64,000 nt of DNA, from NCBI GenBank assembly GCA_020342155.1, contig CP070842.1, positions 555,930 through 619,929 of the forward strand, written 5' to 3'. The stretch's first letter is position 1. Every line of letters begins with the position of its first letter. The translations under genes and the position numbers were made by a program. Under the pieces are notes generated by a model. That model ran no database searches. It was given only the letters and a program-made list of their open reading frames with translations, and was not told the origin of the DNA. Positions 27,304 to 55,852 of the stretch are shown here, one piece after another. Source of the stretch: Dehalococcoidales bacterium. Lineage in GTDB: Bacteria > Chloroflexota > Dehalococcoidia > Dehalococcoidales > Fen-1064.

Positions 27304-27309
27304 ACCTCC

Positions 27310-28466: not shown

Positions 28467-28471
28467 AGAAT

Positions 28472-28500: not shown

Positions 28501-28541
28501 CTCTACGATTCAAACAGATACTATCTATGTAAAGGAATCAT

Positions 28542-33147: not shown

Positions 33148-33951
33148 TCACCCTCGTCCTTCCACAATTGGTGATCGGTCGGAGTTGAGAACGGCAACAA
33201 GAAGGTAGATTCCCCCAGCATATTGTGCGGCTCTTCCAATCCATGCAACTAGACCCTCGACAGAACCCAGAAATATAAAGATGGAGCCCTGGGCAAAAAG
33301 TGATACACCAAGGAAACACCAGAAACGAAAGGCTGTTTGCGACCTGGAATACATCCATAGGTAGACAAACGATGAAACAAGAAAAAGGACTATTGTTGTT
33401 ATTCTAACAGCGCTTCTGAGAAGTACACTCTTTTCGGGTACATAGAATGAGGGAATCACGCCCCTAAACGCGAGTAGGGTAACTACAGCGATGCCGGCGA
33501 TTATCCCCAAGTAGCACAGAAGCACAATCTGAGATCTTCGCCAAAATTCTGGATTGGCCAGATGTGGTTTGGTCACTTCCACGACAGCTCCAGTCAAATA
33601 CAGGGCTGAAGCTATCAAAGCTGCACCCTCATTTGCAGTAATACGGGTATTCAACTCCTCAGCTGGCAGCCACCCGTAGAACAGACTACCAGCACCTAAG
33701 GCCAGTACACCGCAGCCAAGCCATAATACCTGTGACGAAATCGAAACCGCCGCTCTCCTTGCCGCAACATAGGCTACAAGCACCGCAACCGCAGAGATGA
33801 ACACCGTGTTGAGTATATTAATCGGTAAAGGGAGATCGTAGACCTCAACGATATCGACGATATCGAGGCCGACGAAGATAACGCCAAGCGCCGCAATGAT
33901 AAGAACTATACCTAGTGCGAATCCCTTTAACATGTCGGCATCTCGTGGCAA
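33148..33951 (-). CDS. Polytopic membrane protein of unknown function (~7 TM)
   Basis: Hydrophobic segments throughout; no recognisable catalytic motif. Confidence 0.5.
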   Translation of the reverse strand: MPRDADMLKGFALGIVLIIAALGVIFVGLDIVDIVEVYDLPLPINILNTVFISAVAVLVAYVAARRAAVSISSQVLWLGCGVLALGAGSLFYGWLPAEELNTRITANEGAALIASALYLTGAVVEVTKPHLANPEFWRRSQIVLLCYLGIIAGIAVVTLLAFRGVIPSFYVPEKSVLLRSAVRITTIVLFLVSSFVYLWMYSRSQTAFRFWCFLGVSLFAQGSIFIFLGSVEGLVAWIGRAAQYAGGIYLLVAVLNSDRSPIVEGRG

Positions 33952-34167
33952 TAATAGTACAGACTACGTATTGATGACAACCTTAACGCCCATCAATCAC
34001 GAAAAGGAGCACCCGTCTTTCTCAGAATACGGCACCTACGATGAAAGGAGACGGTTCTGCGAGACCGTGTTCAAATGCCCCCACATACAGGGTAGCAATA
34101 TCTTAAGGAAAGACCGAAATGAATGCCTTCGTTTTTATTAACACGAGGGGGGTACAATATGTTGAAA

Positions 34168-34179
34168 TGGTGGGCGGTA
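34168..34179 (+). repeat. 12-bp copy (TGGTGGGCGGTA) of the tRNA-Val 3' end: candidate distal att remnant
   Basis: Identical to 56868..56879 (complement of the tRNA-Val acceptor 3' strand plus CCA), same orientation, exactly 22,700 bp away. A GAACCT follows at a shifted offset. Confidence 0.35.
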
Positions 34180-34636
34180 CTGGACAATAGGTAGAACCTT
34201 TGAGTTAGATTTCTCACTGCCTGTCTAGAGAATACCTAACAATCAGACTGACCGTTTAGATATTCACCTTTTTACTTTTTATGTCCTTACGCCCATTTTT
34301 GTCAATTAACTATATTAGATGTTAAGAGATTACATTATTGGCGGGTTTACGTAATCATAGTATAGATCCAGGCGGGTTTCTTTGAGGTTCTCTAGTATTC
34401 TCAGAAATATACAAGAAATCGGCAATTGTCATCACTGCCAACCAATGTGCCATTCACCACGCTATAGGCATAGGTAGTTTGACCTCCCCGAGATGCTTGG
34501 TTTTACCTATTGCACCTCATGCTTTTCGGGCTCTTTTGTCATCAGAGGACAGGCAAAGTAGTCGATGATGTTTCACCATCACGATGATAGTCTTTAAGTA
34601 GACAGGAAACCAGATAACCAAGAAAGGAGGATAGCC

Positions 34637-34747
34637 ATGGAAGGAGTACTACTACAAACAATACATATCGTAACAAAACTTGGCATACCTCTGATTATTC
34701 TCTTCTTGCTGGGATTTATTATCAATTCACGACCAAGGTATGGTTGA
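34637..34747 (+). CDS. Small (36 aa) single-TM protein
   Basis: AAGGAGG 6 nt upstream of the ATG. Sequence MEGVLLQTIHIVTKLGIPLIILFLLGFIINSRPRYG. Confidence 0.4.
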   Translation: MEGVLLQTIHIVTKLGIPLIILFLLGFIINSRPRYG

Positions 34748-34777
34748 GAATCAGGTCTAATAAAGGAGGTGAAATCA

Positions 34778-34969
34778 ATGGAGACTGTACTGACAATCCT
34801 GATGTTCCTGGGAATTTACGTCGTCTTTCCTCTACTCGTAGCCACTATCGTGTGCGGTATAGCCCTGTTGGCGAGACGTCGTGCTAGGAGTGTGGAGATA
34901 GCCAAACGTGCCAAGGCTCCGACTGCAGCCAAGAAGGTAGGGCTCGCTCATCATCCTGCTAAGACTTAG
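34778..34969 (+). CDS. Small (63 aa) single-TM protein with basic tail, tandem paralog A1
   Basis: AAGGAGG-N8-ATG. The first 31 codons differ from A2 by 8 synonymous and 1 nonsynonymous change. Confidence 0.7.
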   Translation: METVLTILMFLGIYVVFPLLVATIVCGIALLARRRARSVEIAKRAKAPTAAKKVGLAHHPAKT

Positions 34970-34999
34970 TACGAGATTATCAATAAGGAGATGAAATCA

Positions 35000-35182
35000 A
35001 TGGAGGCTGTACTGACAATCCTGATGTTCCTGGGAATCTACGTCGTCTTTCCCCTACTCGTGGCCACCATCGTATGTGGTATAGCTCTGCTGGGGAAGCG
35101 GCGTGCTACGAGGGCCGCAAGGGCTAAAGCCCCAGCAGCCAGAGAGGCCGAAGAACTCACCCATGAGCCTGCTAAGGCGTAG
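35000..35182 (+). CDS. Small (60 aa) single-TM protein with basic tail, tandem paralog A2
   Basis: AAGGAG-N9-ATG; METVLTILMFLGIYVVFPLLVATIVCGIALL core shared with A1. Confidence 0.7.
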   Translation: MEAVLTILMFLGIYVVFPLLVATIVCGIALLGKRRATRAARAKAPAAREAEELTHEPAKA

Positions 35183-35215
35183 CGAGTGAACGGTAGCGGA
35201 TGATAAAACTCCGGC

Positions 35216-35257
35216 AGAGACCCCTGGTTTGAGTTAAACTCCCAGCCAGGGGTCTCT
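35216..35257 (+). terminator. Perfect 12-bp stem hairpin after the small-ORF cluster
   Basis: AGAGACCCCTGG...CCAGGGGTCTCT with an 18-nt loop. No clear U-tract, so intrinsic termination is uncertain. Confidence 0.4.
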
Positions 35258-35259
35258 CT

Positions 35260-35351
35260 ATGCACACATTGCGTAACGGCATAATGGGTCAGGTGTGCAG
35301 TCTGGAATGGGTCTCGTGGCGGATGAACGTGCCTCTGCCTGATGGTAACCT
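35260..35351 (+). promoter_or_regulatory. Conserved promoter/operator module, copy C5 (-35 ATGAAC 35323..35328; TGn-TAACCT -10 at 35346..35351)
   Basis: Shares blocks ATGCACACATTGC / GTCAGGTGTGC / GGAATGGG / CGTGGCGGATGAAC and the exact 17-nt spacer with the copies at 46935, 49477 and 56410. Lies 16 nt upstream of the fdnH-like ATG. Confidence 0.65.
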
Positions 35352-35366
35352 GATTAATGATACATC

Positions 35367-36221
35367 ATGAGTGATAAAGCTATCCTTTTCAACACCACCA
35401 GATGCATTGCGTGTCGCGGTTGCCAGGTGGCCTGCAAGCAGTGGAATGAGACAGACGAGGTGATTCCCACTGAACAGAACAGCGTACGATCAGTAAACCG
35501 TGGCAGTTATGAAAATCCCCCGGACCTCTCACCAAAGACTTGGATGACGATTAAATTCATTGAGAAACCGCAGGGCGATTCCATAGAGTGGTTTTTCAAT
35601 CGTCGTAGCTGTATGCATTGTACTGAGGCTGCCTGTGTCGAGGTGTGCCCCTCTGGGGCTCTTTATCACAACGAAGATGGGTTTGTCACCTATGATAAAG
35701 ATAAATGTACAGGCTGTGGTTATTGTGAGCAATACTGCCCGTTTGATGTTCCTCGATTAGACACAAATATTGTCACAGGCGTGGGTAAAATGGACAAGTG
35801 TACTCTCTGCACGACCCCAAGCCTCAATCGTCTCTCGGCAGGTGAAGAACCTGCGTGTGTCAATACCTGTCCCACTCACGCTCTAGTCTTCGGTGATAGG
35901 GACGAGCTTATCTCCGAAGCTAAAACACTGGTCACCGGTCTGCAGACAACCGGCTCTAGGGTCTATCCCAAGGCAACGCTTTACGGAGAACAGGAACTCG
36001 GTGGCCTCCACGTTCTTTATGTTCTGACAGACTCGCCTGGAGTCTACGGCTTGCCAGAGAATCCTCAGTTCCCTATCGCGGCCACACTCCAGAGAGATGT
36101 CTTCCGTCCCCTTACTAAGGTGGTGTGGCTCATGGTCGCTGGTGGCCTGGCACTGAACGTCTTGATTGCCTGGTTCAGGCAGAGGCAACTTAGTGAGGAG
36201 AACTCTCATGGAAATGATTGA
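35367..36221 (+). CDS. fdnH: FdnH/HybA-like 4x[4Fe-4S] electron-transfer subunit with C-terminal TM anchor
   Basis: CIACRGCQVACKQWN, CMHCTEAACVEVCP, CTGCGYCEQYCP, CTLC...CVNTCP; C-terminal hydrophobic helix. Confidence 0.85.
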   Translation: MSDKAILFNTTRCIACRGCQVACKQWNETDEVIPTEQNSVRSVNRGSYENPPDLSPKTWMTIKFIEKPQGDSIEWFFNRRSCMHCTEAACVEVCPSGALYHNEDGFVTYDKDKCTGCGYCEQYCPFDVPRLDTNIVTGVGKMDKCTLCTTPSLNRLSAGEEPACVNTCPTHALVFGDRDELISEAKTLVTGLQTTGSRVYPKATLYGEQELGGLHVLYVLTDSPGVYGLPENPQFPIAATLQRDVFRPLTKVVWLMVAGGLALNVLIAWFRQRQLSEENSHGND

Positions 36222-36861
36222 ACGCTATACACGAGCAGCGAGATGGTTTCACTGGCTTATTGCCATCGTATTTTTTGAGATGGCACTGTCAGGGCTACTC
36301 ATCTTTCTCCCCTGGGTTCCTTCAGGCACGATAGGCATGTGGACTCGACTTATCCACCGTATTGGCGCAGTGTTTCTCGTTGGCGCTCCGGCAATATTCA
36401 TGCTTTTTGCCTGGCAACGTTCATGGGATTTCATTAAGGAAGCATTCACCTGGGGTAAAGAAGACCTCGAATGGCTGCGAGCCGCACCAGGCTACTATTT
36501 TGGCGGTGACCCGAGGATGATGCCACCCCAGGGTTATATTAACACCGGGATGAAGCTATACCGAATATCTATCATCCTCGGTGGTGGCGTATTTCTTATT
36601 ACGGGATTTATCATGACATTTCTCAGGGGAATTGTACCTCCGGCGGTCTTCCAGTGGTGCCTCGTCCTGCACGATGTCACCTTTATCGTGGCTATCGGTA
36701 TGTTCCTTTTGCACTTTCAACTCGGCGTTTTTCACCCTAGAATGGATGAGTCTCTCTTGTCTATGTTCGATGGCAAGGTCTCAGGTGTCTACGCCAAGTC
36801 CCACCATGGCAAGTGGTATGACGGAGTTAATAATAGAGATGACGATAACTCCTCCGAATAA
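36208..36861 (+). CDS. fdnI: FdnI-like di-heme cytochrome b membrane subunit
   Basis: RYTRAARWFHWLIAIVFF..LSGLLIF, 4 TM with conserved His. Start set at ATG 36208 (GAGGAG upstream), overlapping fdnH-like by 14 nt. Confidence 0.7.
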   Translation: MEMIERYTRAARWFHWLIAIVFFEMALSGLLIFLPWVPSGTIGMWTRLIHRIGAVFLVGAPAIFMLFAWQRSWDFIKEAFTWGKEDLEWLRAAPGYYFGGDPRMMPPQGYINTGMKLYRISIILGGGVFLITGFIMTFLRGIVPPAVFQWCLVLHDVTFIVAIGMFLLHFQLGVFHPRMDESLLSMFDGKVSGVYAKSHHGKWYDGVNNRDDDNSSE

Positions 36862-36898
36862 ATACTGGAGTCCTGATTCTGGGTAAGCATTCTACTGA

Positions 36899-37798
36899 TT
36901 GCAGACTCGAATCGCTGCGCAGGAGCAGACAGTGACGAACACCTGGCATGATACAGTCAGGAACTATATTGAGATACTAAAGCCTCGTGAGACCAGCCTG
37001 ATAGTCTTAATCGGTGCTTGTGCTGCAGTACTGGCCGGAGACGGGCATCCTCCATTGGACAGACTGGTGCTTGTTCTGGTAGCACTGCTCTTTGCCAGCG
37101 CCGGTGCCAATGGGTTAACCAACTACCTGGACCGTCATATCGATGCCAAAATGCAACGCACCAGACATAGAGTTTTACCGTCAAAACGCATCCACCCCGC
37201 AGAAAAGGTGTTACCACTAATACTAAGCCTGTTCATTGCCGGCCTGAGTCTGGCATGGTACCTGCACTTTTTTTGTTTTCTAGCCGGCTTGGGGGGCACA
37301 CTAGCAGCCATCGTGTGGCGCAAACGGTGGACGTGCGTCTTTCCGCAAGGCGTACTTGCTAGCTGTGCCCCCGCCCTGGCTGCATGGTTCGCTATTAGAG
37401 CAAGCCCCAGCTGGTTACTGATATCGCTATGCCTGGTTATCGCCATCTGGGTACCACTGCATCTCTGGAGTATCATGATAACCTGGCGGGACGACTATCT
37501 TGGCGCCGGAATATCTTTCTTTCCGTTGAACCTCAAGACAGACGAGGCAGCCAAAATTCTGGTAGGGCTCAGCCTACTTCTGTACAGCGCTTCTATCGCC
37601 GCTTGTTTTATAAGTAAATCCTCATGGATATCTGTGGTGATGGTCAATCTGATGGGTATTATACTGGTCTATACCAGCATACGGCTGGCTACTTCAATCT
37701 CTTCAAAGCGCTCCTGGAGACTGTATAAACTATCTGCTTTTCCCTACATGGGTTTGGTATTCATGGCTATGTGCCTGGATACTTTGGTGCGAGGTTGA
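36899..37798 (+). CDS. UbiA-family prenyltransferase (heme O synthase CtaB/CyoE-like)
   Basis: YIEILKPRET..., NYLDRHIDAKMQRTRHRVLPSKRI Asp-rich motif, ~8 TM. TTG start is uncertain. Confidence 0.65.
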   Translation: MQTRIAAQEQTVTNTWHDTVRNYIEILKPRETSLIVLIGACAAVLAGDGHPPLDRLVLVLVALLFASAGANGLTNYLDRHIDAKMQRTRHRVLPSKRIHPAEKVLPLILSLFIAGLSLAWYLHFFCFLAGLGGTLAAIVWRKRWTCVFPQGVLASCAPALAAWFAIRASPSWLLISLCLVIAIWVPLHLWSIMITWRDDYLGAGISFFPLNLKTDEAAKILVGLSLLLYSASIAACFISKSSWISVVMVNLMGIILVYTSIRLATSISSKRSWRLYKLSAFPYMGLVFMAMCLDTLVRG

Positions 37799-37895: not shown

Positions 37896-38690
37896 ATGAG
37901 TAAGACACGTTCTACCAGCGGGGACTTGACAACTTCGGCGAAAAAACGTGATTTCCAGCACCTGGGTATTCTCGCCCTGATGATGGTATTTTGCAGCGTC
38001 TTCTATTATTTCGGGGAAATAATAGACCTGACAGGATGGGAAGGCCTACGCTGGAGCTTCTTTTACAGTGTGCATGATGTGCACCGACTCCTTTTTCTCA
38101 TTCCCATAATCTACGCTGGCTATTTCCTCGGATACAAAGCGACTGCACTGGTCACCATTGTTGCCGTTGGTACCTGTCTGCCCCGCGCCCTTTTCATATC
38201 GACTTTTCCTGACCCACTGCTGCGGCCGGTGCTTTTCATCATAGTGGCCAGCGTGCTCGGCTATTTCGCTGCCAGAGTACGTGACCTATCAAAAAAACAG
38301 CACCGCTCTAAAGTTTTACTTAATAATAAGATAGACAGGCTTTCGGCCATACTGGAGGGAATAGGGATAGGAGTCCTTATCATTGGTCCAGACTACAGCA
38401 TTCGTTTTTACAACCGAAACTTAATACGAGATTTCGGTGAAGTTACAAAGTCCCATTGCTACGAATATTTACACGGACTTGATGCACCATGCCACCCGGT
38501 CTGTAAACTGTCGGATGTCATAAACGGGGCAGTTGAACGTTGGGAATATGTATTTCCAGACGGTAGAACATTTGAGATATCCGCTTCACCTCACATTGAT
38601 TCCGATGGCGTAACCTGTCAATTGTCAGTACTCAGAGATATTACACGCTACAGAAAGGGTGACGCAGAACCAGCTGGTCCGACCAACTGA
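37896..38690 (+). CDS. Stand-alone membrane sensor: LPRALFIS-type TM module + Cys-containing PAS-like domain, no output domain
   Basis: The N-terminal ~130 aa align with the N-termini of the kinases at 39098, 50377 and 53447. C-terminal GIGVLIIGPDYSIRFYN...CYEYLHG...CHPVC is PAS-like. Confidence 0.6.
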   Translation: MSKTRSTSGDLTTSAKKRDFQHLGILALMMVFCSVFYYFGEIIDLTGWEGLRWSFFYSVHDVHRLLFLIPIIYAGYFLGYKATALVTIVAVGTCLPRALFISTFPDPLLRPVLFIIVASVLGYFAARVRDLSKKQHRSKVLLNNKIDRLSAILEGIGIGVLIIGPDYSIRFYNRNLIRDFGEVTKSHCYEYLHGLDAPCHPVCKLSDVINGAVERWEYVFPDGRTFEISASPHIDSDGVTCQLSVLRDITRYRKGDAEPAGPTN

Positions 38691-39097: not shown

Positions 39098-40768
39098 TCA
39101 TGTCACCTGCTTTGGCAATACTACTTTAATAGATGTCCCCCTACCTGGCTCAGACAACATCTTCAGGCTTCCACCCAGCAATCGTACCCTTTCCTGCATC
39201 CCCACCAGGCCGAGTTTACCCAGAGGAGCGAGGTCAGCCACTCGCTCTGGTAATTCGAAGCCCTTGCCGTTATCTCTAATAGTTAAGAGTGTACTGTCGT
39301 CACCATACTCTAGCACGACCCAGGCTTGCGATGCCTCGGAATGCTTCCAAACATTTCTCAACGCCTCTTGTGCTATGCGGAACAAGACCAGCTCTACCTC
39401 AGGGGCAAAACGATTGACCGAACCTGTTACTTGCACCTCGATAGCTATCCCGAAATGCTGTTCCAGATCGGAAGCCAGCCATTCTAAGGCTGGTACCAGT
39501 CCCAAGTCATCCAGTATTGATGGTCGCAGGTCCTGACTGAAACGTCGCACCCCTTCCAGTGCCTTGTCCGCCTGTTGTCGGAGTTCCTCTAATAACACCA
39601 TGTCCTGTGATGATAAGCCCTTGCCACCGGCAATAAAAATATCCAACCGTCGTGAGAGAGCTACTAAATCCTGAGCAGTCTCATCATGAAGCTCCCGGGC
39701 AATACGCCTTCGCTCTTCTTCCTGTGCCCTAGTTACCTGCTGAAGATAGAAAGTTAGGCTCTCTCGCATCTGCTTCTCCTTCTCCGCATCGCTGGCAATC
39801 TGCTCTGCCATTATGCGCTGATTATAATAGAGACGGGCATTATCCACAGCTACCCCAATGTGACTGGCAATATGAGAAAGGAGTTCTACATCCTCCTGTA
39901 CAAACTCGCGAGGACCACGAGTGGCCACACATAGTGTACCCGTAACCCTGCCTTCGGCCTTCAGCGGAGCAATTATCTCAGCCCGGATACCATCCTTCCT
40001 GACCACCTCTCTGGTCAGCCTGGGATCAGCAGAGGTGTCCTTAACTACCAATGACTCACCCGTCTGGGCAACCTGCCCGTTGAACCCTTCGCCCACCTTC
40101 AGCCTGCTTAGTTCCGCCACCAGCTCCTCAGAGACTCCAAGGTGTATTTTAGGTTCAAGCCCTTGGGTTTTTTCATCCAGCAGGAAAGCCAGGACCACCT
40201 CCACATCCATTACTTCTGCGACCTTGTCTGCAGCAGCGTGCAGGATAGCCTCTAACTCCAGGGATTGACCAAGAACATCTGAAACCTCGTTTAAAGCAGC
40301 CAATCGTCTCTCGTTTTTCTGTATGGACTCGAGATACGACTGCAGTTCACCCTGGGCTACTGCCAATTTTTGCAGTGCCAGTTGAGTGCGGTTTTTCTCT
40401 CTTCTGTAGAGCTCAAACCACAGGTTTACTAACCCACCGACAATTATTACAGCACAGACCTCCACTACAGCATCGCGTGAGACTGTCGAAATCAATATAG
40501 CGCGAGGCAACATAATGGCCAGAGCCACTGTAGTAGCAGCCAGAAATCCCCGCATACCAAAGATAAAGGATGCATAGGAAATGGGTAAAAGAAAAAGGAT
40601 TCGCTCAAGGGCATGCCGGGTCAGACCTAACGCTGGTGAGATAGACGGTAGCAGGGATTCTTCAGGATAGTGAAAGATGGCTCCGATGACAAACATCACC
40701 GTCAAAATCCACAAGTGGATACCCATGACTAAAATACGTCGATTCGCTGATTCTGGTTCTTCTCTCAC
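39098..40768 (-). CDS. Sensor histidine kinase (LPRAILIS TM module + GAF + HisKA_3 + HATPase_c)
   Basis: ARELHDETAQ H-box (NarX/DegS type), GAF-like central region, C-terminal ATPase motifs. Confidence 0.9.
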   Translation of the reverse strand: MREEPESANRRILVMGIHLWILTVMFVIGAIFHYPEESLLPSISPALGLTRHALERILFLLPISYASFIFGMRGFLAATTVALAIMLPRAILISTVSRDAVVEVCAVIIVGGLVNLWFELYRREKNRTQLALQKLAVAQGELQSYLESIQKNERRLAALNEVSDVLGQSLELEAILHAAADKVAEVMDVEVVLAFLLDEKTQGLEPKIHLGVSEELVAELSRLKVGEGFNGQVAQTGESLVVKDTSADPRLTREVVRKDGIRAEIIAPLKAEGRVTGTLCVATRGPREFVQEDVELLSHIASHIGVAVDNARLYYNQRIMAEQIASDAEKEKQMRESLTFYLQQVTRAQEEERRRIARELHDETAQDLVALSRRLDIFIAGGKGLSSQDMVLLEELRQQADKALEGVRRFSQDLRPSILDDLGLVPALEWLASDLEQHFGIAIEVQVTGSVNRFAPEVELVLFRIAQEALRNVWKHSEASQAWVVLEYGDDSTLLTIRDNGKGFELPERVADLAPLGKLGLVGMQERVRLLGGSLKMLSEPGRGTSIKVVLPKQVT

Positions 40769-40796: not shown

Positions 40797-41459
40797 TCAG
40801 GATATGTCCTCTAGGCTGAACCACCCCTCTTTTAACCCTCGTAGAATGGCCTCAGTGCGTGAGCCGACCCCTAATTTATCGAAGATACGGGCGAGGTGAC
40901 CCTGTACAGTTCGGACGCTGAGATAGAGCTTATCAGCAATATCGCCGTTGCTCAGACCTTTGGCTGCCAGCATGAGTACTTCAAGCTCTCTCTCAGTAAG
41001 GGATGCAGGAGCAACCTGACCAGCCCCCTGCTTGGATGGCATGAAACGCCGCAGGACCTTGCTCGCAATTGCCGGATGAAGCACTGACTCGCCATGATAA
41101 ACCGAGCGAATTGCCTCTACCAGTTCAGAGCCACGTACATTCTTCAACAGGTAACCAGCCGCTCCCGCCTCGAGGAGGCTGAAGACATATCTGTCATTGT
41201 CATATACTGTCAGGACCAGCACGGCAGTGGAAGGAACAGCCTCCTTCAGTCGCCTGGTGGCTTCGATGCCATTAAGCTTTGGCATAGCAATATCCATAAT
41301 GGCGACATCGGGTTTGAGTCTGATGACTTGCTCAACAGCCTCTTCACCATCGCCTGCCTCGGCTACCACCTCCATGTCGCTTTCGGCTTCAAGGACCCGG
41401 CGGGTACCCTCACGGACTATAGCATGGTCATCAGCCAGCAATATTCTGATCTTCTCCAT
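40797..41459 (-). CDS. NarL/LuxR-family response regulator
   Basis: MEKIRILLADDH...GEAGDGEEAV...MPKLNG; LuxR HTH LTERELEVLMLAAKGLSNGDIA. Confidence 0.9.
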   Translation of the reverse strand: MEKIRILLADDHAIVREGTRRVLEAESDMEVVAEAGDGEEAVEQVIRLKPDVAIMDIAMPKLNGIEATRRLKEAVPSTAVLVLTVYDNDRYVFSLLEAGAAGYLLKNVRGSELVEAIRSVYHGESVLHPAIASKVLRRFMPSKQGAGQVAPASLTERELEVLMLAAKGLSNGDIADKLYLSVRTVQGHLARIFDKLGVGSRTEAILRGLKEGWFSLEDIS

Positions 41460-41485: not shown

Positions 41486-42664
41486 CTAGTTGGAACCTGC
41501 CTCAGTGATAGCCCCTTCTTTATTACCTGGGCCCATTGGTAGAAGCCGATTAGCCAGCCAGATGACAAGCATGGCATCGGCGACGAGTCCGGCTGATACG
41601 GCAAACTCCATCCAGTAAGGGAAATAGGTGAAATCTGGCCGTATACCAAGAGCCAGCATACTTACGTTGAAACGGTTGAATATCAGTCCTACTACAACCA
41701 GCGTCGCCGTCCAGAACAGCCATGTCCTGCTTTGTCTCACACTGGGCATGGAGAATAGGACGATTGGCAGGATAGCACCAATAACCATTTCTCCCCACCA
41801 GAGCAGGTTCTCCGGATAGGCTGTAAAGATTAGCGTCAGGTCTCCCCTGGCCAGCAGGTCTACTATTTTCAGTAAAAGATAAACACTCAGTATATAGGCG
41901 GTCATTTTGCCCAGGCCGCTGAAGATATCAAGACTTAAACGGTGGCCGAAGACCCGGCTGCTCAGCGTTGACTCGAACATCACCATCGCCGGTCCCACTG
42001 CAATGGCCGAATTAAGAAAAAGTATTGGTAGTATCGGTGTGTACCAAAGGGTGTGAAGGGTCTCTGGCATCATTAGCAGCATTGACCCCAAGGATGACTG
42101 GTGCAGAGTGGAAAGGACAATGCCGGCAATCACCAAGGGTATCTGTATTGCCCGGATAATGCGCATAGGAATTTGCCACTTGAATCGTTTTATTATGGGC
42201 AGGTCGGATTTACTTAAGGCCTCAAAAACCACCGGGCTGAACTCTAGGGCAAGTACAATGGTGTAGGTCATGACACACAATGACACTTCAAACATTGGGG
42301 AGTGGATGTTCCAGTTAAAAAGGAAGCGCCAGATGTACCAGGGCTGTCCCAGGTCCACCAGCAGGGCAAGTATCACCAGAGTATAGCCCAAGAACGCAGT
42401 CAGGATTGCCGGTCTCGCCACGGCATGGTATTTTTCGCGTCTGAAGATATACACAATCCCCGCCAGGGTGAACCCGCCAGCTGCCAGGGCGACGCCACAA
42501 TACAGGTCGAAGCTTATCCAGAGCCCCCAGGCACGACCATCACTGAGGTTGGTCGTTGCCCCCAGTCCATTGATATAGCGGAGTATCATGGTTATCAGCC
42601 CAATCAGAACCACAGTTGTCAGGATAAGTGTGCCAACCGGGATTGAACGTTTGTTTATCTTCAT
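41486..42664 (-). CDS. nrfD: NrfD/PsrC-family integral membrane quinone-interacting subunit
   Basis: 392 aa, ~10 TM. Start overlaps the stop of the Fe-S subunit gene (ATGA). Confidence 0.8.
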   Translation of the reverse strand: MKINKRSIPVGTLILTTVVLIGLITMILRYINGLGATTNLSDGRAWGLWISFDLYCGVALAAGGFTLAGIVYIFRREKYHAVARPAILTAFLGYTLVILALLVDLGQPWYIWRFLFNWNIHSPMFEVSLCVMTYTIVLALEFSPVVFEALSKSDLPIIKRFKWQIPMRIIRAIQIPLVIAGIVLSTLHQSSLGSMLLMMPETLHTLWYTPILPILFLNSAIAVGPAMVMFESTLSSRVFGHRLSLDIFSGLGKMTAYILSVYLLLKIVDLLARGDLTLIFTAYPENLLWWGEMVIGAILPIVLFSMPSVRQSRTWLFWTATLVVVGLIFNRFNVSMLALGIRPDFTYFPYWMEFAVSAGLVADAMLVIWLANRLLPMGPGNKEGAITEAGSN

Positions 42665-43467
42665 TTAGGCACTCCTACCCGCTCCTTATCATCTGGGGTG
42701 ACTGCCCCTCCAGACCCCTGTCGACGTTTCACCAGCCAGTAAATGCCGGACATGAGTGCTGCCACGCCTACAAGCACGGGTGGAACGGCACCCATGGCAC
42801 GTTCAACGTTAACCGTCACCGCCTCCGAGCCGACAACTGGCATTCCGAGCATATCGAAAGGAACGGGGGAGAGGTACAGCCAGGACGTACCACCAACTTC
42901 CTCTTCTCCATATACATGGTTCACATATTTGCTTGGTTCGGCAGCAATACGCTGGTGGGCTTCAGCAATAAGGGCATCACGCTCGCTAAACTTGAGTGCG
43001 CCTGAGGGGCACGCTGTTACACAAGCAGGTTTGAGTCCACCAGTCTGACGGTCTGCACAAAAGGTACACTTGCGCACCCAGGGTGTCGGGTCGTCCCACT
43101 GATAGGCCGGGATACCGAAAGGACAGGCAACCATACAATAGCGGCAACCAATACATTTGTGGTCGTCGTACAAGACTGGCCCCTCCTCCGTTTTCTGGAA
43201 AGCTCCCACCAGGCAGGCAGCAGCACAGGCCGGATGCTCACAGTGCATGCACTGGATTTTGGTAAAAACCCAGTGGAATTTGCCGTCATAGTCTGCCTCA
43301 CTAAAGTGGACTTTGGTCAGTGTATAGGCTGTGGTCTTTGGTGGGTTTTCGTAGCTGCCGGTATTGGTGGTAGTTTCTCCCGGCATCTCGTTCCACTGCT
43401 TGCAGGCCACCTGACACGCCCGGCATCCTATGCACTTGTTGGCGTCACAGAGAACTGCTTTGCTCAT
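42661..43467 (-). CDS. fdnH: FdnH/PsrB-like 4x[4Fe-4S] subunit with C-terminal TM helix
   Basis: CIGCRACQVACKQWN, CMHCEHPACAAAC, CIGCRYCMVACP, CTFC...CVTACP. Confidence 0.85.
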   Translation of the reverse strand: MSKAVLCDANKCIGCRACQVACKQWNEMPGETTTNTGSYENPPKTTAYTLTKVHFSEADYDGKFHWVFTKIQCMHCEHPACAAACLVGAFQKTEEGPVLYDDHKCIGCRYCMVACPFGIPAYQWDDPTPWVRKCTFCADRQTGGLKPACVTACPSGALKFSERDALIAEAHQRIAAEPSKYVNHVYGEEEVGGTSWLYLSPVPFDMLGMPVVGSEAVTVNVERAMGAVPPVLVGVAALMSGIYWLVKRRQGSGGAVTPDDKERVGVPK

Positions 43468-43468
43468 G

Positions 43469-46400
43469 TTAAGCCCTCCTTATGTTGCATAGGAAGGTCT
43501 TGTACTCCGGGATGGTAGTGTTAGCATCGCCGACGTGCGGAGTAAGAATATTACCGCTATCGCCCTTAGCCATACCGCTGTATCCAAAGTGCCAGATTAC
43601 GCCGATGTGGTAAATGGTCTTGCCACCCACCGTCAGCGGCGGGAAGCGTTTGGTCACGATGGCCACGGCGCTAATCTCTCCCCGGGCAGTACTGACTGTC
43701 ACCATGTCTCCGTTCTCAATACCCTTGTCTGCGGCCAGTTCTTCACCCATCTCTACATACATATTGGGCATGAGCTCCACCAGCCAGGGGAGGTTCCTCG
43801 TCATGATGCCGGTCTGCCAGTGTTCGGTGCAGCGGTATGTGGTGCCCACATAAGGATACTGCTCAGGTGTTCCCTGCTGATTGCGATATGTGCCGATAAA
43901 GGAGCAGGGATTAATCTTGGTGCCCGACATCAGGTTTTCATCCAGAGGGCTTTCCCAGGGCTCATAAACCTCCGGCACTGGCCCCTCGGCCAGGCCGTAA
44001 CCCCAGAGACGTGCCACCCCTTCCGGTTTCATAATAAAGGGGAGGTACTTTGCCCCGTTCCCGGCTTGGTTGATTGGAGGCCAGCCCCCATCGGCGATAT
44101 CGCCCTGCCATTTCCCCTGACCGTACGAGATGACCGGGTGTTCACTGTCCCAGGGCACCCCATCAAGGTCAACCGAAGCCCGGTTATAGATAATACGTCG
44201 GTTGACCGGCCAGCACCAGGCCCAGTTGGAATACAGACCGATTTGCTGGGGATGCGTATCCACCGGGTCAGTTTTCTTGGCCTTATTGCCGTCTGTCTCG
44301 GTATACATGTTACAGTAGAGCCAGTTTCCCGAACTGGTAGTACCATCATCCTTGAGGGAGCCGAAGCTGGCCATCAACTGGCCGGTTGAGTCATAGCCGT
44401 TTATCTCTCTTGCTACCGCATCGGCCGTGATGTGGCTCCCATAGTCCCAGTCCAGCTCCACGACTGGCTTCGCCAGCGGACGGCTGTCCGCCTGATAAAG
44501 CTCTTTCAGCTTCAGCATAACCAGGTTCATAATCTCAAGGTCAGGCATTGCCTCTCCCGGAGCTTCCACCGCTTTATAGCGCCATTGTGCCCAGCGGCCG
44601 CTGTTAGTGATGCTCCCCTCCTTTTCGTAAGAGCAGGCCGCCGGGAGGATGAATACCTCGGTCTTGATATCAGCCGGTGCAACCCCAGGTCTCTTCCAGA
44701 ACTCGGCTGTCTCGTTCATCCATATATCAGCGGCGACCAGCCAGTCCAGGTTTGCCAGAGCAGCACGCGCCCCGTTAGAATTGGGGCCACCCGATGCCGG
44801 GTTCTGTCCCCAGTTCCAGAGTCCCTTAATTGTGCCCTGACCCATCGCCTCAATCATCCCGATGTGAGTGTAATTCAGACTGGGGTCACGTTTCGGCAGG
44901 TAGTGAAAACAGAAATCATTACTTTGGGTAGCCGCATTGCCGTACCAGGCTTTGAGCAGGCTCACCACATACTTCTTGTAGTTGCCCCACCAGTTGGCAC
45001 TGGTGTCTCCGGCGAGGCCCTGAGGCGTGATGGTTGACGGGCGAGCTCGTCTGAGGTAGTCCTCAAGGTCAGCGTCACCCTCTACCGGAGCCACCAGGTA
45101 CCCTGGCAAGATGTGGCTTAGCAGACACATGTCAGTCGACCCCTGGACATTGGAGGTGCCACGTAGAGCGTTGATACCGCCTCCAGAAACACCCATGTTG
45201 CCCAGCAGGAGCTGGAGTATGCCATAGGCCCTGATATTCTGGGTGCCATAGGTATGCTGGGTAGCCCCCATAGCATACATGATGGTACCAGCCTTACCTC
45301 GCTGTCCGGTAGCACTGTATGTCCGGCATATCTCCCGATAAACATCCTTGGGGGTGCCGGTAATATTACAGACGGTATCGATGTCGTAGCGGGAGAAGTG
45401 ATTCTTAAGCAGTTGGAAGACACAGTTTGGGTTTTCTAGGGTGGGGTCTGTGTCTGGAGTGGCGGTATCGGCATATTGCCAGCTCCCCCTAGATGCGGCT
45501 GTGTACTTGCCATCCTCCACTTCACCAAAAAGCCCATCATGAAAGACAAATTCCTGATTGACGATAAAGGAGGCATTGGTGTACTGGATGATATATTCCA
45601 TATTGTAGTTGGCAGGATTATCCGCAATGTCATCGAGTACGTATTTTATCATTCCACCGATGAAGGCGATGTCTGTACCCGACCTCAGAGGTGCATAGAT
45701 ATCGGCCTTAGATGATGTCCGGGTGAAACGCGGATCAACATGGATAAGCTTGGCCCCCCTGGCCATTGCTTCCGACACCCACTTGAAGGATATAGGGTGG
45801 TTCTCCGCGGCATTAGAGCCAATTATCATGATGCAGTCGGCATTTTGGATATCAATCCAGTGATTGGTCATGGCCCCTCTACCAAAACTCTCCGCCAAAC
45901 TGGCGACGGTAGAGGAGTGTCAGAGCCGGGCACAGTGCTCTAGATATACCACTCCCAGTGCCCGGTTCATCTTGGCAAGCAGATAACACTCTTCGTTGTC
46001 CAGTTCACCACCGCCAAGGCAAGCAATCGCGTCAGTCCGGCCCATTGCTTCATTCCAAGACGCGTCACGGGTAGACTTGACCCTCTGGGCGATGGTATTT
46101 ATCATCCAGCCCCAAGACTTCTCCTCCCAGTCAGCCGAGTTCGGTGCCCGGTACAGGGGCGTGGTTAGGCGGTACGTGTTAGGTTTGCCATTTACTTGGT
46201 GAATCTGGGCCATAGCCAGCCCCTTGGGGCAGAGTGACCCCTCGTTGACGGGATGGTCAGGGTTCCCCTCTATCTTGATAATGCCATCCTCATAGTCGGC
46301 TACAATGGCCCCGCAACCAACCGAGCAGTAGCAGCAGATGGTGGCTGTCTCTTTGACCCTTGTCTTTAGCTGCAATTCCTTAGGAGCAGCAATTACAATC

Positions 46401-46483
46401 CCTTTCGTGTCAAAGGTGAGCACCGCTGCGGCACCGATTCCCGCCCCCGAGAACTTCAGAAAGTCTCTACGGTTTAGTCTCAC
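43469..46483 (-). CDS. fdnG: Tat-exported, selenocysteine-containing formate-dehydrogenase-type molybdopterin subunit (FdnG-like); in-frame TGA at 45920..45922
   Basis: ORFs 45920..46483 and 43469..45898 are in the same frame (3015 nt). RRDFLK Tat motif and CCYCSVGCG [4Fe-4S] motif. Junction reads EHCARL-TGA-HSSTVASLAESFGRGAMTNHW, the conserved Sec/Cys active-site context. A hairpin follows the TGA. Confidence 0.85.
45876..45922 (-). promoter_or_regulatory. UGA(Sec) codon plus putative SECIS hairpin
   Basis: mRNA reads UGA-CACU-CCUCUACC-G-UCGCC-AGUUU-GGCGG-AGAGUUUU-GGUAGAGG. The 8-bp lower stem and 5-bp upper stem start 4 and 13 nt after the UGA. Confidence 0.55.
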
Positions 46484-46609
46484 AAATCCTCTCCTCCTTT
46501 CTGCTTATCACGCTTCGTCGAGCGAGAAGCCAGTCAGGCGACCCTGCTTGACGACAAAGACATTCACGCACATATTTGCCCTTACGCTTCTTCCAGTAGA
46601 CCACTACTT

Positions 46610-46849
46610 TTACCACCATTTGTCCTGTGCACCTTTCACGGAAATCCACGTTTTTAACCGGTTATCCAGCTTGCCGACCCATGACTCTATCTTCGCGACA
46701 TCACCCCTTACCAGGGCTGTCATTTCCTCTGGGGTCAAATCATACTCCTGCAATACCTTGTAAGGATTCTCCACCAACCGGGCAAGAAATTTTTGGTCGC
46801 TGGCAGCTCTGGATAATATATCTATAATTACCTTTCGATCCGGTGGCAC
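46610..46849 (-). CDS. Small helical protein of unknown function (LigA-subunit-like motif), first gene of the FDH operon
   Basis: 79 aa, GTG start with GGAGGA 9 nt upstream. ...FLARLVENPYKVLQEYDLTPEEMTALVRGD resembles the LigA-like small-domain family (weak, from memory). Confidence 0.4.
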   Translation of the reverse strand: MPPDRKVIIDILSRAASDQKFLARLVENPYKVLQEYDLTPEEMTALVRGDVAKIESWVGKLDNRLKTWISVKGAQDKWW

Positions 46850-46868: not shown

Positions 46869-46921
46869 ATGCCAGCAAACCATAGCTCGCTTATTTTTAG
46901 CTAACGACGTTCTGCTGGCAT
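46869..46921 (-). other. 5'-leader hairpin (9-bp perfect stem ATGCCAGCA/TGCTGGCAT, 35-nt internally paired loop) ending 4 nt before the SD of 46610..46849
   Basis: Arms at 46869..46877 and 46913..46921. Lies between the predicted TSS (~46928) and the GGAGGA. Confidence 0.4.
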
Positions 46922-46934: not shown

Positions 46935-47058
46935 AGATTAACACCAGGTAAAAAGTGGTTCATCCGCCACGAGGCCCATTCTCCCGAGTACACCTGGCTC
47001 ATTCTATGACTAAGCAATCTGTGCACATTGAAAGCCATCAGCAATATCGTCTGGGTCT
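46935..47058 (-). promoter_or_regulatory. Conserved promoter/operator module, copy C1 (-35 ATGAAC 46958..46963; TGT-TAATCT -10 46935..46940)
   Basis: About 85% identical to copy C2 over ~125 bp, with an exact 17-nt spacer. Drives the small-protein/Sec-FDH/NrfD/RR/HK operon. Confidence 0.65.
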
Positions 47059-47219: not shown

Positions 47220-49046
47220 CTATTTCATAGCTTTCTTTAAATCCTGGTCGATCCAGAGATACTTTACGGAGCCGGCATAGTTGTAGTAACCGACAGCATA
47301 TGTACCATAGTAGTTCTTTACCCACGGCCACCAGATCATGTAGTAATCCGGGACCACCGAGGGGATACAGTATGCCTGCTCGAGGAGCCACGGCATCAGT
47401 TCACGGTGGATTCTCATCATTTCGGCATCGTTGGTACCGGCGTACTGTTTTATCTCCGCATAAGCATCTTCAATCTCGGGTACACTGTAGTCCTCATTGA
47501 TATAGCTGACGTTGTAAGCACCCGGACCCCTGTAATTAATCATCTTCATGTAGGTACCATTACCAGCGGGAGTGATGTACATAATCTCGTAGGCGGTGTG
47601 GTTCCTGGCACGAGCCCGCGTGCTGTAGTCAGTGTAATCATGAATATCGAGTTGCATGTCGATGTTGATATCCGCCAGCATCTCCTGATACATGGAGAGG
47701 ATGTCTATCATTGCGGGCGTATTCCAGCAGATGACACTGCAGTCGAAACCCTCGGAGTAAGCAGTCTGGTCCAGTTTCGCCTGGGCTGCTGCTATGTCCG
47801 CTGGTCCATAGAACGCCTGGACATCCTCGGGCAGTTCCTCCAGGGGCATGTGGGCAGCCTTGTACTCGGTGGTGGGTGTTACCGGCCAAGTCACTAACTC
47901 ACCCGAGCCTTCCCAGTACTGGTCCCTTATCAGCGGTTGGTCTATGGCCAGCATCATCGCTTGCCTGACCTCTTTTACGCTGAAGGGTGACTCCGGCAGG
48001 TCTGTTCTGAAGAACATGCAGTTAGCCATATCGTAGAGGTAAGTCTTATATTCTATATCACTCATCTTGGGATCAGTAACAATGGGCTGGGCATCATTGT
48101 AGTTAATCAACTGCATGACGTCAAGCTGTTTGGAGCGAAAAGCTGCTTCCCTGACGGAGGGATCCGTGATGACCAAAGACTTGATTTTGTCTACATAGGG
48201 CAAGCGGTTTCCCTTACCCGGGCCGATGGGGTCGGTTTCCCAGTAGTCCGGGTTCTTAATGTAGGTGATCTGGCTGCTGGGTACGTAGTCGGATAGTATG
48301 AATGGCCCGGTGCCGACGACATTTTGCCAGTCTGACTCACCTCCGTATAGATCAATCACCTCGGGTGCTACGATTGACATGTAGTCGGGTATCAGGGTTA
48401 CCAGGTTAACCCACTGGTCTGCGGGAACTGTGACAGTTACCGTCCGCGCAATATTATCAACTGTTACCTCCGCGGTCCGACTCATTGTGGCATAAAAGTA
48501 CGCGAAATACCCCGTGGACATTGCCCTCTCTATGCTAAATCCGACATCTTCAGGCGTCAGTAGTCGGCCGTTTACCGGTGGCTTGTTCTGCCATCTGACC
48601 CCCTCGCGGATGTGGAAGACGATTGTCCCGAGTTCAGGTATTGTCCAGCTATCTGCCAGACAGCCGATCTTCAGGTCCATGCGATTATCGCCGCCATTGA
48701 TAAAATCAGACTCGCCTGTGCCTGCCGGTCCCTTTGTCCAGTCACCCTGCAATAGCTCATTATGGGTCATTTTAGAGCTGCCAACATAGACGTGACCTCC
48801 GTAGTTAGGCGGAAGTACTTCGTCAAAATACGGGGGATCCGCGGTCCGGGGGTATACGAATTCACCCCCATACTGCGGTACGCCATCGTCTCCTTCCTCC
48901 TCTTCTTCCTCCTCTTCTTCCTCCTCTTCTTCTTCCTCCTCTTCTTCCTCCTCCTGCTCACCAGGTCCTGTTCCATCGCAAGACCACGCCACCAGGGTCA
49001 ATACCATGATACAACTCAGAGATATCCATAAGAATTTTCTCTTCAC
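47220..49046 (-). CDS. Family-5 (DppA/OppA-type) ABC substrate-binding lipoprotein with a poly-Glu linker
   Basis: Signal peptide with lipobox-like LVAWSC, run of 20 Glu, then YGGEF..., ...NPDYWE... typical of SBP_bac_5. GTG start with AGGAGA upstream. Confidence 0.85.
   Translation of the reverse strand: MKRKFLWISLSCIMVLTLVAWSCDGTGPGEQEEEEEEEEEEEEEEEEEEEEGDDGVPQYGGEFVYPRTADPPYFDEVLPPNYGGHVYVGSSKMTHNELLQGDWTKGPAGTGESDFINGGDNRMDLKIGCLADSWTIPELGTIVFHIREGVRWQNKPPVNGRLLTPEDVGFSIERAMSTGYFAYFYATMSRTAEVTVDNIARTVTVTVPADQWVNLVTLIPDYMSIVAPEVIDLYGGESDWQNVVGTGPFILSDYVPSSQITYIKNPDYWETDPIGPGKGNRLPYVDKIKSLVITDPSVREAAFRSKQLDVMQLINYNDAQPIVTDPKMSDIEYKTYLYDMANCMFFRTDLPESPFSVKEVRQAMMLAIDQPLIRDQYWEGSGELVTWPVTPTTEYKAAHMPLEELPEDVQAFYGPADIAAAQAKLDQTAYSEGFDCSVICWNTPAMIDILSMYQEMLADINIDMQLDIHDYTDYSTRARARNHTAYEIMYITPAGNGTYMKMINYRGPGAYNVSYINEDYSVPEIEDAYAEIKQYAGTNDAEMMRIHRELMPWLLEQAYCIPSVVPDYYMIWWPWVKNYYGTYAVGYYNYAGSVKYLWIDQDLKKAMK
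48894..48953 (-). repeat. 60-nt GAA/GAG microsatellite-like tract encoding 20 consecutive Glu
   Basis: Plus strand reads (ttc/ctc)x20 with a partial 12-nt periodicity. Confidence 0.9.
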
Positions 49047-49476: not shown

Positions 49477-49600
49477 CAGATTAGCACTGGGCTAAAAGTG
49501 GTTCATCCGCCACGATACCCATTCTACCGGGCACACCTGGCCGAATATACCTAAGCAATCTGTGCACATTGAAAGCCATCAACAATATCATCCAGGCTTT
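49477..49600 (-). promoter_or_regulatory. Conserved promoter/operator module, copy C2 (-35 ATGAAC 49500..49505; TGC-TAATCT -10 49477..49482)
   Basis: Same blocks and the same 17-nt spacer as C1, C3 and C5. Points toward the small ORF and SBP gene, and is divergent from the RR2-HK2 promoter. Confidence 0.65.
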
Positions 49601-54919: not shown

Positions 54920-55852
54920 TTACTTCGTCTCGGCACCGGGAGCCTTCACAAGAAGTAGAGGTTTGTTTCCCCTGTGCAGTACCTTCTCACCGACACTGCC
55001 GAAAACCCAGTGACCTACACTGGAGCGTTTGTTAATCGACATGGCTATCATATCAGCCCCGATGCCGTTAGCGAAATCGATGATTTCTTCGGCTGCATTA
55101 CCCGGTTTGACTTCAAGTCCTAGCGTCATACCATTCTCGTTCAGTTGCTTTCCGATACGTTCAAGGTAGTCCTCAGCGGGAATCTCGGCAGATGCTATCT
55201 GTTGTTCACGGTCTATGGTATATTCATACCCCTTGGTAGTGATAGTGTGGTAACTACCAGCCAACACTTGAAAAAGAACCACTTCCGCCCCTAGTCCGGA
55301 AGCAAGCCAGGCTACATGTGGAATCACCGCCTCGCTTTCTCGAGAACCATCCAGGGGCACTACTATCCTTTTTAATATTCCCTGCTCTGGTGCTGTACGA
55401 TGTCTCTCTTTAGCTCTAACGAGCATGATCGGTTTTTCTATAACCTTAATTACTCTATTGGCAACGCTTCCCAAGACCCAACGAGTGACACCTGAGTGTC
55501 CGTGAGTTGCCATTACAACAAGGCTAATTTCATCCTCCGCAGCGCAGTCTATGATTCCCTCGGCGGCCGTACTGCGTTTGAGATCAAGTGTTACAGCAAT
55601 ACCTTTCTCTTTAAGTCGGTCACGAACCTTTTCCAGGTACAAGCTAGCACTTGATTCTGAAGCAACTGTTTGCTCTAATGAGTAAGCTACTTCAATCGAT
55701 TCTGTATACACGTTATACATGTTCAAAGTAACCACTCTAAGCAATTTGATACCAGTACCGAGCTTGACTGCCAGCTCTTCAGCATAGGGTAGCACTACCT
55801 CAGCCAGTTCCGAACCGTCTAGAGGTACAAGTATTTCCTTATCCACGCTCAC
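54920..55852 (-). CDS. Tandem-domain universal stress protein (2x UspA)
   Basis: Two repeats of ILVPLDGS...ADMIAM/LVVMATHGHSG...GSV..KV. Confidence 0.85.
   Translation of the reverse strand: MSVDKEILVPLDGSELAEVVLPYAEELAVKLGTGIKLLRVVTLNMYNVYTESIEVAYSLEQTVASESSASLYLEKVRDRLKEKGIAVTLDLKRSTAAEGIIDCAAEDEISLVVMATHGHSGVTRWVLGSVANRVIKVIEKPIMLVRAKERHRTAPEQGILKRIVVPLDGSRESEAVIPHVAWLASGLGAEVVLFQVLAGSYHTITTKGYEYTIDREQQIASAEIPAEDYLERIGKQLNENGMTLGLEVKPGNAAEEIIDFANGIGADMIAMSINKRSSVGHWVFGSVGEKVLHRGNKPLLLVKAPGAETK

Follow-up and report, generated by a model that had tools for sequence, protein, structure and literature searches.

A probable selenocysteine formate dehydrogenase operon with an NrfD-type membrane subunit, and a nearby cytochrome b module behind the same putative promoter element, in a Dehalococcoidales bacterium

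The minus strand of a 64,000-nucleotide stretch of the genome of a Dehalococcoidales bacterium (contig CP070842.1, positions 555,930 to 619,929; hereafter the window) carries an operon for a formate dehydrogenase (FDH)-like membrane complex, which encodes a small protein of 79 amino acids (aa), a catalytic (alpha) subunit with an in-frame TGA codon, an electron-transfer (beta) subunit with four iron-sulfur clusters and an NrfD-family membrane subunit, and which is followed in the same direction by the genes of a two-component system (Table 1). An earlier reading of the same DNA, made from the letters alone (the original prediction), had described two catalytic open reading frames (ORFs) as one 1004-codon gene broken only by the TGA at 45920..45922 in a conserved active-site context, with a Tat signal (RRDFLK), a transmembrane (TM)-anchored four-cluster Fe-S subunit and an NrfD/PsrC-like subunit behind it, a NarL-type response regulator/histidine kinase pair further on, and a 79-aa ORF and a structured leader (46869..46921) at the front. 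All of these elements were recovered by translation, alignment, domain searches and folding, and the one unusual feature of this otherwise ordinary, widely conserved selenocysteine (Sec) FDH operon is that two membrane-anchor modules stand behind the same promoter element.

Translation of the catalytic gene yields a single internal stop, the TGA at 45922..45920 in the context LEHCARL-(stop)-HSSTVASLAESFGRGAMTN, with no frameshift and no second stop across 3012 nt, and as one polypeptide the junction would read EHCARL-U-HSSTVASLAESFGR. The 187 aa on the N-terminal side comprise the Tat signal (PF10518, 25.4 bits, cut-off 22.7; TIGR01409, 24.3 bits, cut-off 16.7) and the Molybdop_Fe4S4 domain, and the 816 aa on the C-terminal side the Molybdopterin and Molydop_binding domains. 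Against TIGR01553 (formate-DH-N alpha; cut-off 814.2) the C-terminal part by itself reaches 1021.9 bits, and the N-terminal part contributes 159 bits more. The nearest solved relatives are the Sec enzymes 1H0H, 6SDR and 1KQF. In the alignment to Desulfovibrio vulgaris FdhA (6SDR), U188 coincides with SeCys192, H189 with His193 and the arginine of NALRGTSNVQ with Arg441, and the 4Fe-4S cysteine motif CCYCSVGCG...CPKG is retained. Indeed, the predicted protein is a member of the FdnG/FdhA family and shows every feature of that family for which its sequence can be inspected.

Most related genes share the interruption. Among the database homologues, the 100 or so nearest ones (70-82% identity) each have a length of about 804 aa, i.e. 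they are split at the same point, and when the codon at the Sec position was read directly in 82 related loci from many phyla (the loci used for comparison, numbered L001, L013 and so on below), it was TGA in 77, TGC or TGT (Cys) in five and a Ser codon in none. The codon four positions before Sec (window 45932..45934) specifies Cys in a Dehalococcoidia clade, EHCAR[LI]U (L001-L027, L042, L052), and Gln in most other phyla and in the solved enzymes (EHQARIU). The ratio of non-synonymous to synonymous substitution (dN/dS) against eight relatives is 0.05-0.08 on the 3' side of the TGA and 0.09-0.12 on the 5' side, values that, with dS saturated (>1.3), describe the lineage and do not isolate the terminal branch. 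The public record splits the gene and names only the downstream part: a 100%-identical 809-aa protein in NCBI (P0001), on a 2,295,986-bp contig that also carries the 79-aa gene, represents the piece 3' of the TGA, with an internal TTG start at 45898, while the predicted true product is a 1004-residue selenoprotein.

Close behind the TGA the transcript can form a bacterial Sec insertion sequence (SECIS) hairpin. In the RNAfold structure (-24 kcal/mol) an 11-bp lower stem, a 7-nt 3' internal loop and a 6-bp upper stem with a GUU loop follow each other, such that the hairpin starts 2 nt after the UGA and its apical loop lies 19 nt after it. The original prediction had placed a two-tier hairpin at 45876..45915, 4 nt after the TGA; this hairpin was confirmed, with two more pairs in the RNAfold structure. 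By folding alone (z = -2.3; equally good folds in 2 of 200 shuffles) the hairpin is only modestly above chance, and it is the comparative data that make it convincing. On an alignment of 70 distinct sequences 75.9% of the cells can pair according to the window structure, compared with at most 56% in controls with slid partners, and pair 21-33 covaries through changes at synonymous sites (U-A 24, C-G 21, G-C 5). An upper stem with all four of its pairs can form in 61 of the 77 TGA loci but in none of the five Cys loci, although the encoded peptide is nearly the same, and the mean minimum free energy of the region is -20.7 kcal/mol for the TGA loci versus -12.5 kcal/mol for the Cys loci. With -24.0 kcal/mol and every upper-stem pair kept, the window hairpin is among the most stable of the set. 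The FdnG-type consensus of Rfam, SECIS_3, is matched over its full length (E = 2e-7 to 2e-6 for the stretch searched) with 36.7 bits, under the gathering score of 63.

Five independent lines, namely the structural alignment, the conservation of the codon, the SECIS, the dN/dS values and the tRNA-Sec/sel context, thus say that the TGA is a Sec codon with a genuine FdnG-type bacterial SECIS. As for this context, a tRNA-Sec gene adjoins the fdh operon in the Dehalococcoidia loci L010, L014, L020 and L024, and Sec-containing FdnG together with a selCDAB operon has been reported for all Dehalogenimonas genomes (PMC13390414).

The beta subunit has 16 Cys in four cluster motifs, a TM helix at residues 228-246 by hydropathy and no signal peptide of its own. 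It scores 277 bits against HmcB, 225 against HybA and 174 against FDH-beta, all under the cut-offs, and 170 bits against 1KQF_B, and is 32% identical to Escherichia coli HybA. The membrane subunit matches Pfam NrfD (86 bits) as well as, again under the cut-offs, HybB (295 bits) and HmcC (292 bits); it aligns end to end with E. coli HybB, which has the same length (392 aa), at 30% identity over 377 aa, and no solved relative was detectable by sequence. Ten HybB residues are retained (Y84, H85, R89, Y99, Y141, E148, E155, H184, S186 and S187), of which R89, Y99, E148 and H184 matter for HybB function (PMC8076601). Since both subunits fall under every NCBIfam equivalog cut-off, neither can be placed in an exact subfamily; by its best matches the operon combines a membrane module of the HybA/HybB type, as in hydrogenase-2, with a predicted FDH catalytic subunit. 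The order alpha-beta-NrfD is kept in at least 11 relatives from Dehalococcoidia, Anaerolineales and other phyla (L001, L002, L004-L009, L021, L042, L070).

A second operon (35367..37798), convergent with the fdh operon and 5 kb away, encodes an FdnH-like four-cluster subunit, an FdnI-like cytochrome b and a haem O synthase-like prenyltransferase. The best family of the FdnH-like subunit is TIGR01582 (FDH-beta; 226.5 bits, cut-off 334.7), and it is 74% identical to its counterpart in L013; that of the cytochrome b, whose true start is probably an internal ATG near 36208, is TIGR01583 (formate-DH-gamma; 94.4 bits, cut-off 115.9). The haem O synthase-like gene is syntenic in L013 (73% identity) and L084. 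An alpha pseudogene upstream of the FdnH-like gene was considered and rejected, as a tblastn search of 33951..35367 shows no trace of alpha. The alpha orthologues of L013 and L084 stand without beta and NrfD genes, have a response regulator and a kinase gene directly on their 3' side and face the same convergent cytochrome b operon; in L042 each module has an alpha gene of its own, with alpha2 directly upstream of the cytochrome b module. Near relatives of alpha are found with three types of anchor: a HybA-like beta with a 10-helix NrfD subunit; an FdnH-like beta with an NrfD protein of about 300 aa, followed by fdhE, tatC and selC; and an FdnH-like beta with cytochrome b. An 8-helix version of NrfD is present in L003, L010, L020 and L024. 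The earlier description of the anchor as NrfD-type rather than cytochrome b is half right, because both modules are present and apparently co-regulated: the alpha operon does hold an NrfD subunit, but the FdnH-like/FdnI-like pair, at a distance of 5 kb, has the same promoter element in front of it, and the exclusion of cytochrome b fails in L013 and L084, where alpha occurs with only the convergent cytochrome b module.

The element shared by the two operons (65-67 nt) is composed of an imperfect inverted repeat, TGCACAgATTGC ... GCCAGGTGTAC, and a GGCGGATGAA box, giving the pattern TGCACAnATT...GGCGGATGAA, with an extended -10-like motif, TGnTAAnCT, on its 3' side (~46933-46941 at the fdh operon). 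The pattern occurs four times in the window, against zero occurrences expected; the copy at 49502..49566 precedes a 70-aa TM ORF and a solute-binding protein gene (49046..47220), and that at 56434..56500 a 61-aa zinc-ribbon ORF and a Usp gene (56340..54920). Among the relatives, it is located upstream of FDH operons in L008, L013 (twice; 4952-5018 and 13708-13773), L084 and L085-87 (L085 4356-4422, L086 6881-6947), and L013 repeats the pairing of the window, with one element before the alpha operon and one before the FdnH/cytochrome b operon (13773..13708). A riboswitch or leader RNA was rejected, and because there is neither RNA covariation nor an Rfam match, we infer that the 67-nt element is a DNA promoter with an upstream palindromic operator; the four copies look like a small regulon. 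The response regulator has an orthologue in L013 that is 88% identical and directly follows alpha. Four paralogous response regulators of the LuxR type (~60% identical) are encoded in the window. A 264-aa membrane protein (37896..38690, plus strand) resembles the sensor part of the neighbouring kinases without their kinase domain, and its relatives adjoin the alpha-beta-NrfD operon in L004 (10719-11390), L005 (8539-9210) and L008 (11030-11743). Just upstream of the FdnH-like promoter element are tandem ORFs of 66 and 63 aa (34769..34969 and 34991..35182, plus strand; 68-72% identical), which have one TM helix each and start with MKSME.VLTILMFLGIYVVFPLLVATIVCGIALL...; weak homologues lie upstream of both element copies of L013.

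The 79-aa protein at the head of the fdh operon belongs to the NHLP clan, scoring 55.4 bits against NF038399 (cut-off 40) and 37.7 bits against PF14407, under its cut-off of 48, and has 78 database relatives of 71-139 aa. At all eight places examined a member of this family lies beside an FDH operon, and at seven it is the first gene: in the window, L008 and L084 it heads a periplasmic Sec-type FDH operon, and in L085, L086, L087 and at one of the two L001 copies an operon of the NuoE-NuoF-FdhA type, at the 3' end of which the second L001 copy is found. A LuxR-type response regulator and a kinase are nearby at most of these places. A role as precursor of a ribosomally synthesised and post-translationally modified peptide was rejected: the protein is not a typical precursor of this kind because its C-terminus is conserved across 14 homologues, none of which has a variable core or tail, and no maturase lies near it at the eight places, where the neighbours are FDH subunits and the response regulator/kinase pair. 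The AlphaFold2 model is an all-helical six-helix bundle (pLDDT 77), for which a fold search against the PDB gave no significant match (best E 0.7) and which resembles SonA, Os1348 and DesB only weakly. The hairpin ahead of this gene has the -10-like motif on one side and the ribosome-binding site on the other, so that it presumably belongs to the 5' leader, and L084 has a hairpin of different sequence at the corresponding leader position.

Table 1. Genes, RNA structures and promoter elements at the locus, with positions in the window (in the relatives where indicated).
Feature	Position	Strand	Description
79-aa NHLP-clan (Os1348 family) protein, JSV77_03135	46849..46610	minus	first gene of operon
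79-aa family in relatives	L008 5046-5267; L001 15489-15701, 20963-21187; L084 7001-7261; L085 4482-4835; L086 7001-7354		
Leader hairpin	46921..46869	minus	RNAfold -26.9 kcal/mol within 96 nt, z = -2.6
fdhA/fdnG-type catalytic (alpha) subunit	46483..43469	minus	1004 codons + stop, Tat signal, 4Fe-4S motif, Sec188
Bacterial SECIS hairpin	45917..45874	minus	RNAfold + comparative data; Rfam SECIS_3 match spans 45925..45867
Four-[4Fe-4S] electron-transfer (beta) subunit	43467..42661	minus	268 aa, HmcB/HybA-like, C-terminal TM helix
NrfD-family membrane subunit, HybB/HmcC type	42664..41486	minus	392 aa, ~10 TM helices by hydropathy
NarL/LuxR-type response regulator (REC + GerE)	41459..40797	minus	Pfam/NCBIfam domains
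Sensor histidine kinase (GAF + HisKA_3 + HATPase_c)	40768..39098	minus	Pfam/NCBIfam domains
FdnH-like four-cluster subunit	35367..36221	plus	C-terminal TM helix, no Tat signal, no catalytic gene upstream
FdnI-like cytochrome b	36166..36861	plus	Pfam Ni_hydr_CYTB; 4 TM helices, His29/64/169/183
UbiA-family, haem O synthase-like prenyltransferase	36899..37798	plus	last gene of cytochrome b operon
Promoter/operator element, fdh copy	47025..46959	minus	upstream of small-ORF/fdh operon
Promoter/operator element, cytochrome b copy	35261..35327	plus	~40 nt before FdnH-like start codon
Promoter/operator element, further copies	49502..49566, 56434..56500	minus	pattern matches

Taken as a whole, the locus is probably best explained by a Tat-exported FDH that depends on Sec and on a molybdenum- or tungsten-bis-pyranopterin guanine dinucleotide cofactor. 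In such an enzyme, SelB would bind the FdnG-type SECIS hairpin and bring about the insertion of Sec at UGA188, and alpha would carry the signal-less four-cluster beta subunit across the membrane, with formate being oxidised on the outer face. Electrons would pass from the 4Fe-4S cluster of alpha via those of beta, four in number, and reach a quinone site in the NrfD subunit, which is haem-free and of the 10-helix HybB type. Because the residues of the proton pathway in E. coli HybB are retained in this subunit, the reduction of menaquinone would probably be coupled to charge separation. The apparently co-regulated convergent module (FdnH-like subunit, di-haem cytochrome b and haem O synthase-like protein) would probably offer the same alpha subunit a redox-loop route of the FDH-N type, and expression is presumably controlled by the NarL-type two-component system and the shared promoter/operator element.

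Several results weigh against parts of this explanation. At the Rfam gathering threshold no SECIS match is obtained, the dS values are saturated, and the beta and NrfD subunits stay below the equivalog cut-offs. Within the 64-kb window neither selA, selB, selC and selD nor a tRNA-Sec gene is present. A search with the C-terminal part of SelB from L024 did not return the source contig among its top 120 matches, which is uninformative for this genome. These matches were all short (115-288 aa) proteins of the SelB C-terminal domain (P0199-P0318; L024 14121-14615), which are either SelB remnants or a stand-alone winged-helix family. On another Dehalococcoidales chromosome (CP070832.1; L088 10001-10590) a 195-aa C-terminal piece of SelB lies beside a truncated purD, with no GTPase domain nearby. 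Lastly, the arrangement in L042 means that the orphan cytochrome b module of the window might serve an alpha subunit encoded elsewhere.

This last point bears on the strongest alternative, to which we give somewhat less than an even chance: the cytochrome b operon would be unrelated to the Sec-containing alpha, its products working with a different catalytic subunit encoded elsewhere or on the cytoplasmic side, and the HybA/NrfD module would be the sole partner. The fdh operon of the window is complete by itself, the cytochrome b module of L042 has alpha2 directly upstream, and the shared element also precedes unrelated genes, those for the solute-binding protein and for the zinc-ribbon ORF and Usp. 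By contrast, alpha in L013 and L084 is flanked by exactly this module with no other beta or anchor within reach, and the best families of the pair are FDH-beta and FDH-gamma. Export of FdnH-type subunits depends on a signal-bearing partner, which the FdnH-like protein, having no Tat signal, would also need. A combined proposal, namely that one Sec-containing alpha is shared by two co-regulated alternative modules and that, in addition, the NHLP-clan protein is a dedicated, hitherto unrecognised accessory or regulatory factor of FDHs in Chloroflexota, given that its family adjoins FDH operons of both the periplasmic and the NAD-linked kind, is put forward only tentatively, as a rather doubtful one. 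If true, the cell could switch the way in which the oxidation of formate, or the reduction of CO2, is linked to its quinone pool and its proton motive force.

With regard to the substrate, the evidence favours true formate oxidation, because the predicted Sec-His-Arg triad is kept, TIGR01553 is matched above its cut-off and Ser is absent from the 82 relatives. It is improbable that alpha is no FDH at all but an OmeA-like electron relay, or a subunit of a complex iron-sulfur molybdoenzyme for another substrate, as in the organohalide-respiration complex of Dehalococcoides. In favour of this view, the organism is a member of the Dehalococcoidales, OmeA-like proteins are the closest relatives of the FdnG of Chloroflexi (PMC5736913), and the anchor is of the NrfD type, as has been stated for OmeB. 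However, the active site consists of Sec-His and the conserved Arg instead of Ser, and the operon includes a dedicated four-cluster beta subunit, whereas OmeA, with Ser at its active site and no beta gene in its operon, borrows HupX (PMC5736913). Furthermore, a Pfam scan of the window ORFs of at least 100 aa revealed neither a reductive dehalogenase nor an uptake hydrogenase. Non-dehalogenating Dehalococcoidales would thus appear to carry a bona fide Sec FDH rather than a Ser-type OmeA relay, which is in line with the use of formate as an electron donor, or of CO2 as an electron sink, by members of this group that have not been cultured.

Very unlikely, finally, is a decaying selenoprotein gene in a lineage that has lost its Sec machinery, where translation would end at UGA188 and the 816-codon part would be unmade or made from the TTG at 45898: NCBI annotates only the 809-aa downstream ORF, and the missing sel and tRNA-Sec genes in the window and the SelB remnant next to the truncated purD in the related chromosome leave this view a small probability, but the TGA is the sole stop in 3012 nt without any frameshift, dN/dS 3' of it is low, the hairpin is more stable than the mean of the TGA loci with all of its upper-stem pairs intact, and a product starting at 45898 would be devoid of the Tat signal, the 4Fe-4S domain and the active-site Sec-His pair.

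Elsewhere in the window, a cluster on the minus strand (23823..31836) encodes NuoE-like and NuoF-like proteins, a HoxU-like protein fused to a receiver domain, a sigma-54 activator and another receiver protein, together with a histidine kinase (29896..31836) whose N-terminal half resembles the H-domain of [FeFe]-hydrogenases; this cluster may be a hydrogen- or redox-sensing regulatory unit, and a truncated RpoN-like gene is found at 31836..32951. A second molybdopterin enzyme, encoded on the plus strand within 14011..17777, has 705 aa, no Tat signal and no in-frame stop; its best family is Fdh-alpha TIGR01591 (352 bits, under the cut-off), and its gene is followed by that of a GltD-like NAD(P)-binding Fe-S flavoprotein, the two probably forming a cytoplasmic NAD(P)-linked oxidoreductase. 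The family-5 solute-binding protein encoded at 47220..49046 (minus strand) has an N-terminus that resembles a signal/lipobox, behind which more than 20 glutamates stand in a row.

The main yield of the analysis is the correction of the annotation of alpha, but what was found around it is of greater use. Modest extra value comes from the pair of apparently co-regulated anchor modules, from the small protein linked to FDH operons and from the operator that the modules share, the latter two being testable leads for regulation. Three anchor types have been swapped on nearly the same catalytic subunit among close relatives, and two of them are kept here under one promoter element, which makes this a natural system to ask what anchors of the NrfD type and the cytochrome b type add to energy conservation.

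Among the solved enzymes, alpha resembles Desulfovibrio gigas (1H0H) and D. vulgaris (6SDR) FdhAB over its whole length (the 816-aa C-terminal part scores 843 and 822 bits), sharing the Tat signal, the 4Fe-4S motif, the Sec-His pair and Arg441, with 117-134 bits for beta. However, the Desulfovibrio enzymes are soluble and pass electrons to cytochrome c, whereas in the window a beta subunit with a TM helix is followed by an integral membrane subunit, and their motif is EHQAR-U, as opposed to EHCAR-U in the clade of the window. With E. coli FdnGHI (1KQF) the locus has in common a Sec-containing FdnG with an FdnG-type SECIS (SECIS_3), a TM-anchored FdnH-like beta subunit and, at 35367..36861, a complete FdnH/FdnI-type pair; it differs in that the in-operon anchor is of the haem-free NrfD/HybB type and that the cytochrome b pair is separate, convergent and without an alpha of its own. 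The beta subunit and the anchor resemble HybA and HybB of E. coli hydrogenase-2 (32 and 30% identity), including the four functionally important residues, but their scores are under the HybA/HybB cut-offs and their catalytic partner is a molybdopterin FDH instead of a [NiFe] hydrogenase.

Within the class Dehalococcoidia, the FDH-N of Dehalogenimonas likewise contains a Sec-type FdnG, with selCDAB in the genomes, and the dual role proposed for it (PMC13390414) is also possible for the window enzyme. From OmeAB of Dehalococcoides, as described in the literature (PMC5736913), the window complex is distinct: it has Sec where OmeA has Ser, and it includes its own beta subunit. A Sec enzyme with an NrfD-type anchor is less novel than the original prediction implied, as FqoABC, a putative formate:quinone oxidoreductase made of FdnG and FdnH homologues and an NrfD-like, cofactor-less quinone-interacting subunit, has already been described for both Chloroflexi and Deltaproteobacteria (Calisto and Pereira 2021, PMC8076601), and a Sec-containing FdnG is known from Dehalogenimonas (PMC13390414). 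As in FqoABC, homologues of FdnG and FdnH and an NrfD-family subunit are encoded in one operon in the window, but FqoC has 8 TM helices, compared with about 10 in the HybB/HmcC-like anchor described here, and the beta subunit is nearer to HmcB/HybA than to FdnH. By analogy, the window complex would work like FqoABC, but with a 10-helix HybB-type subunit.

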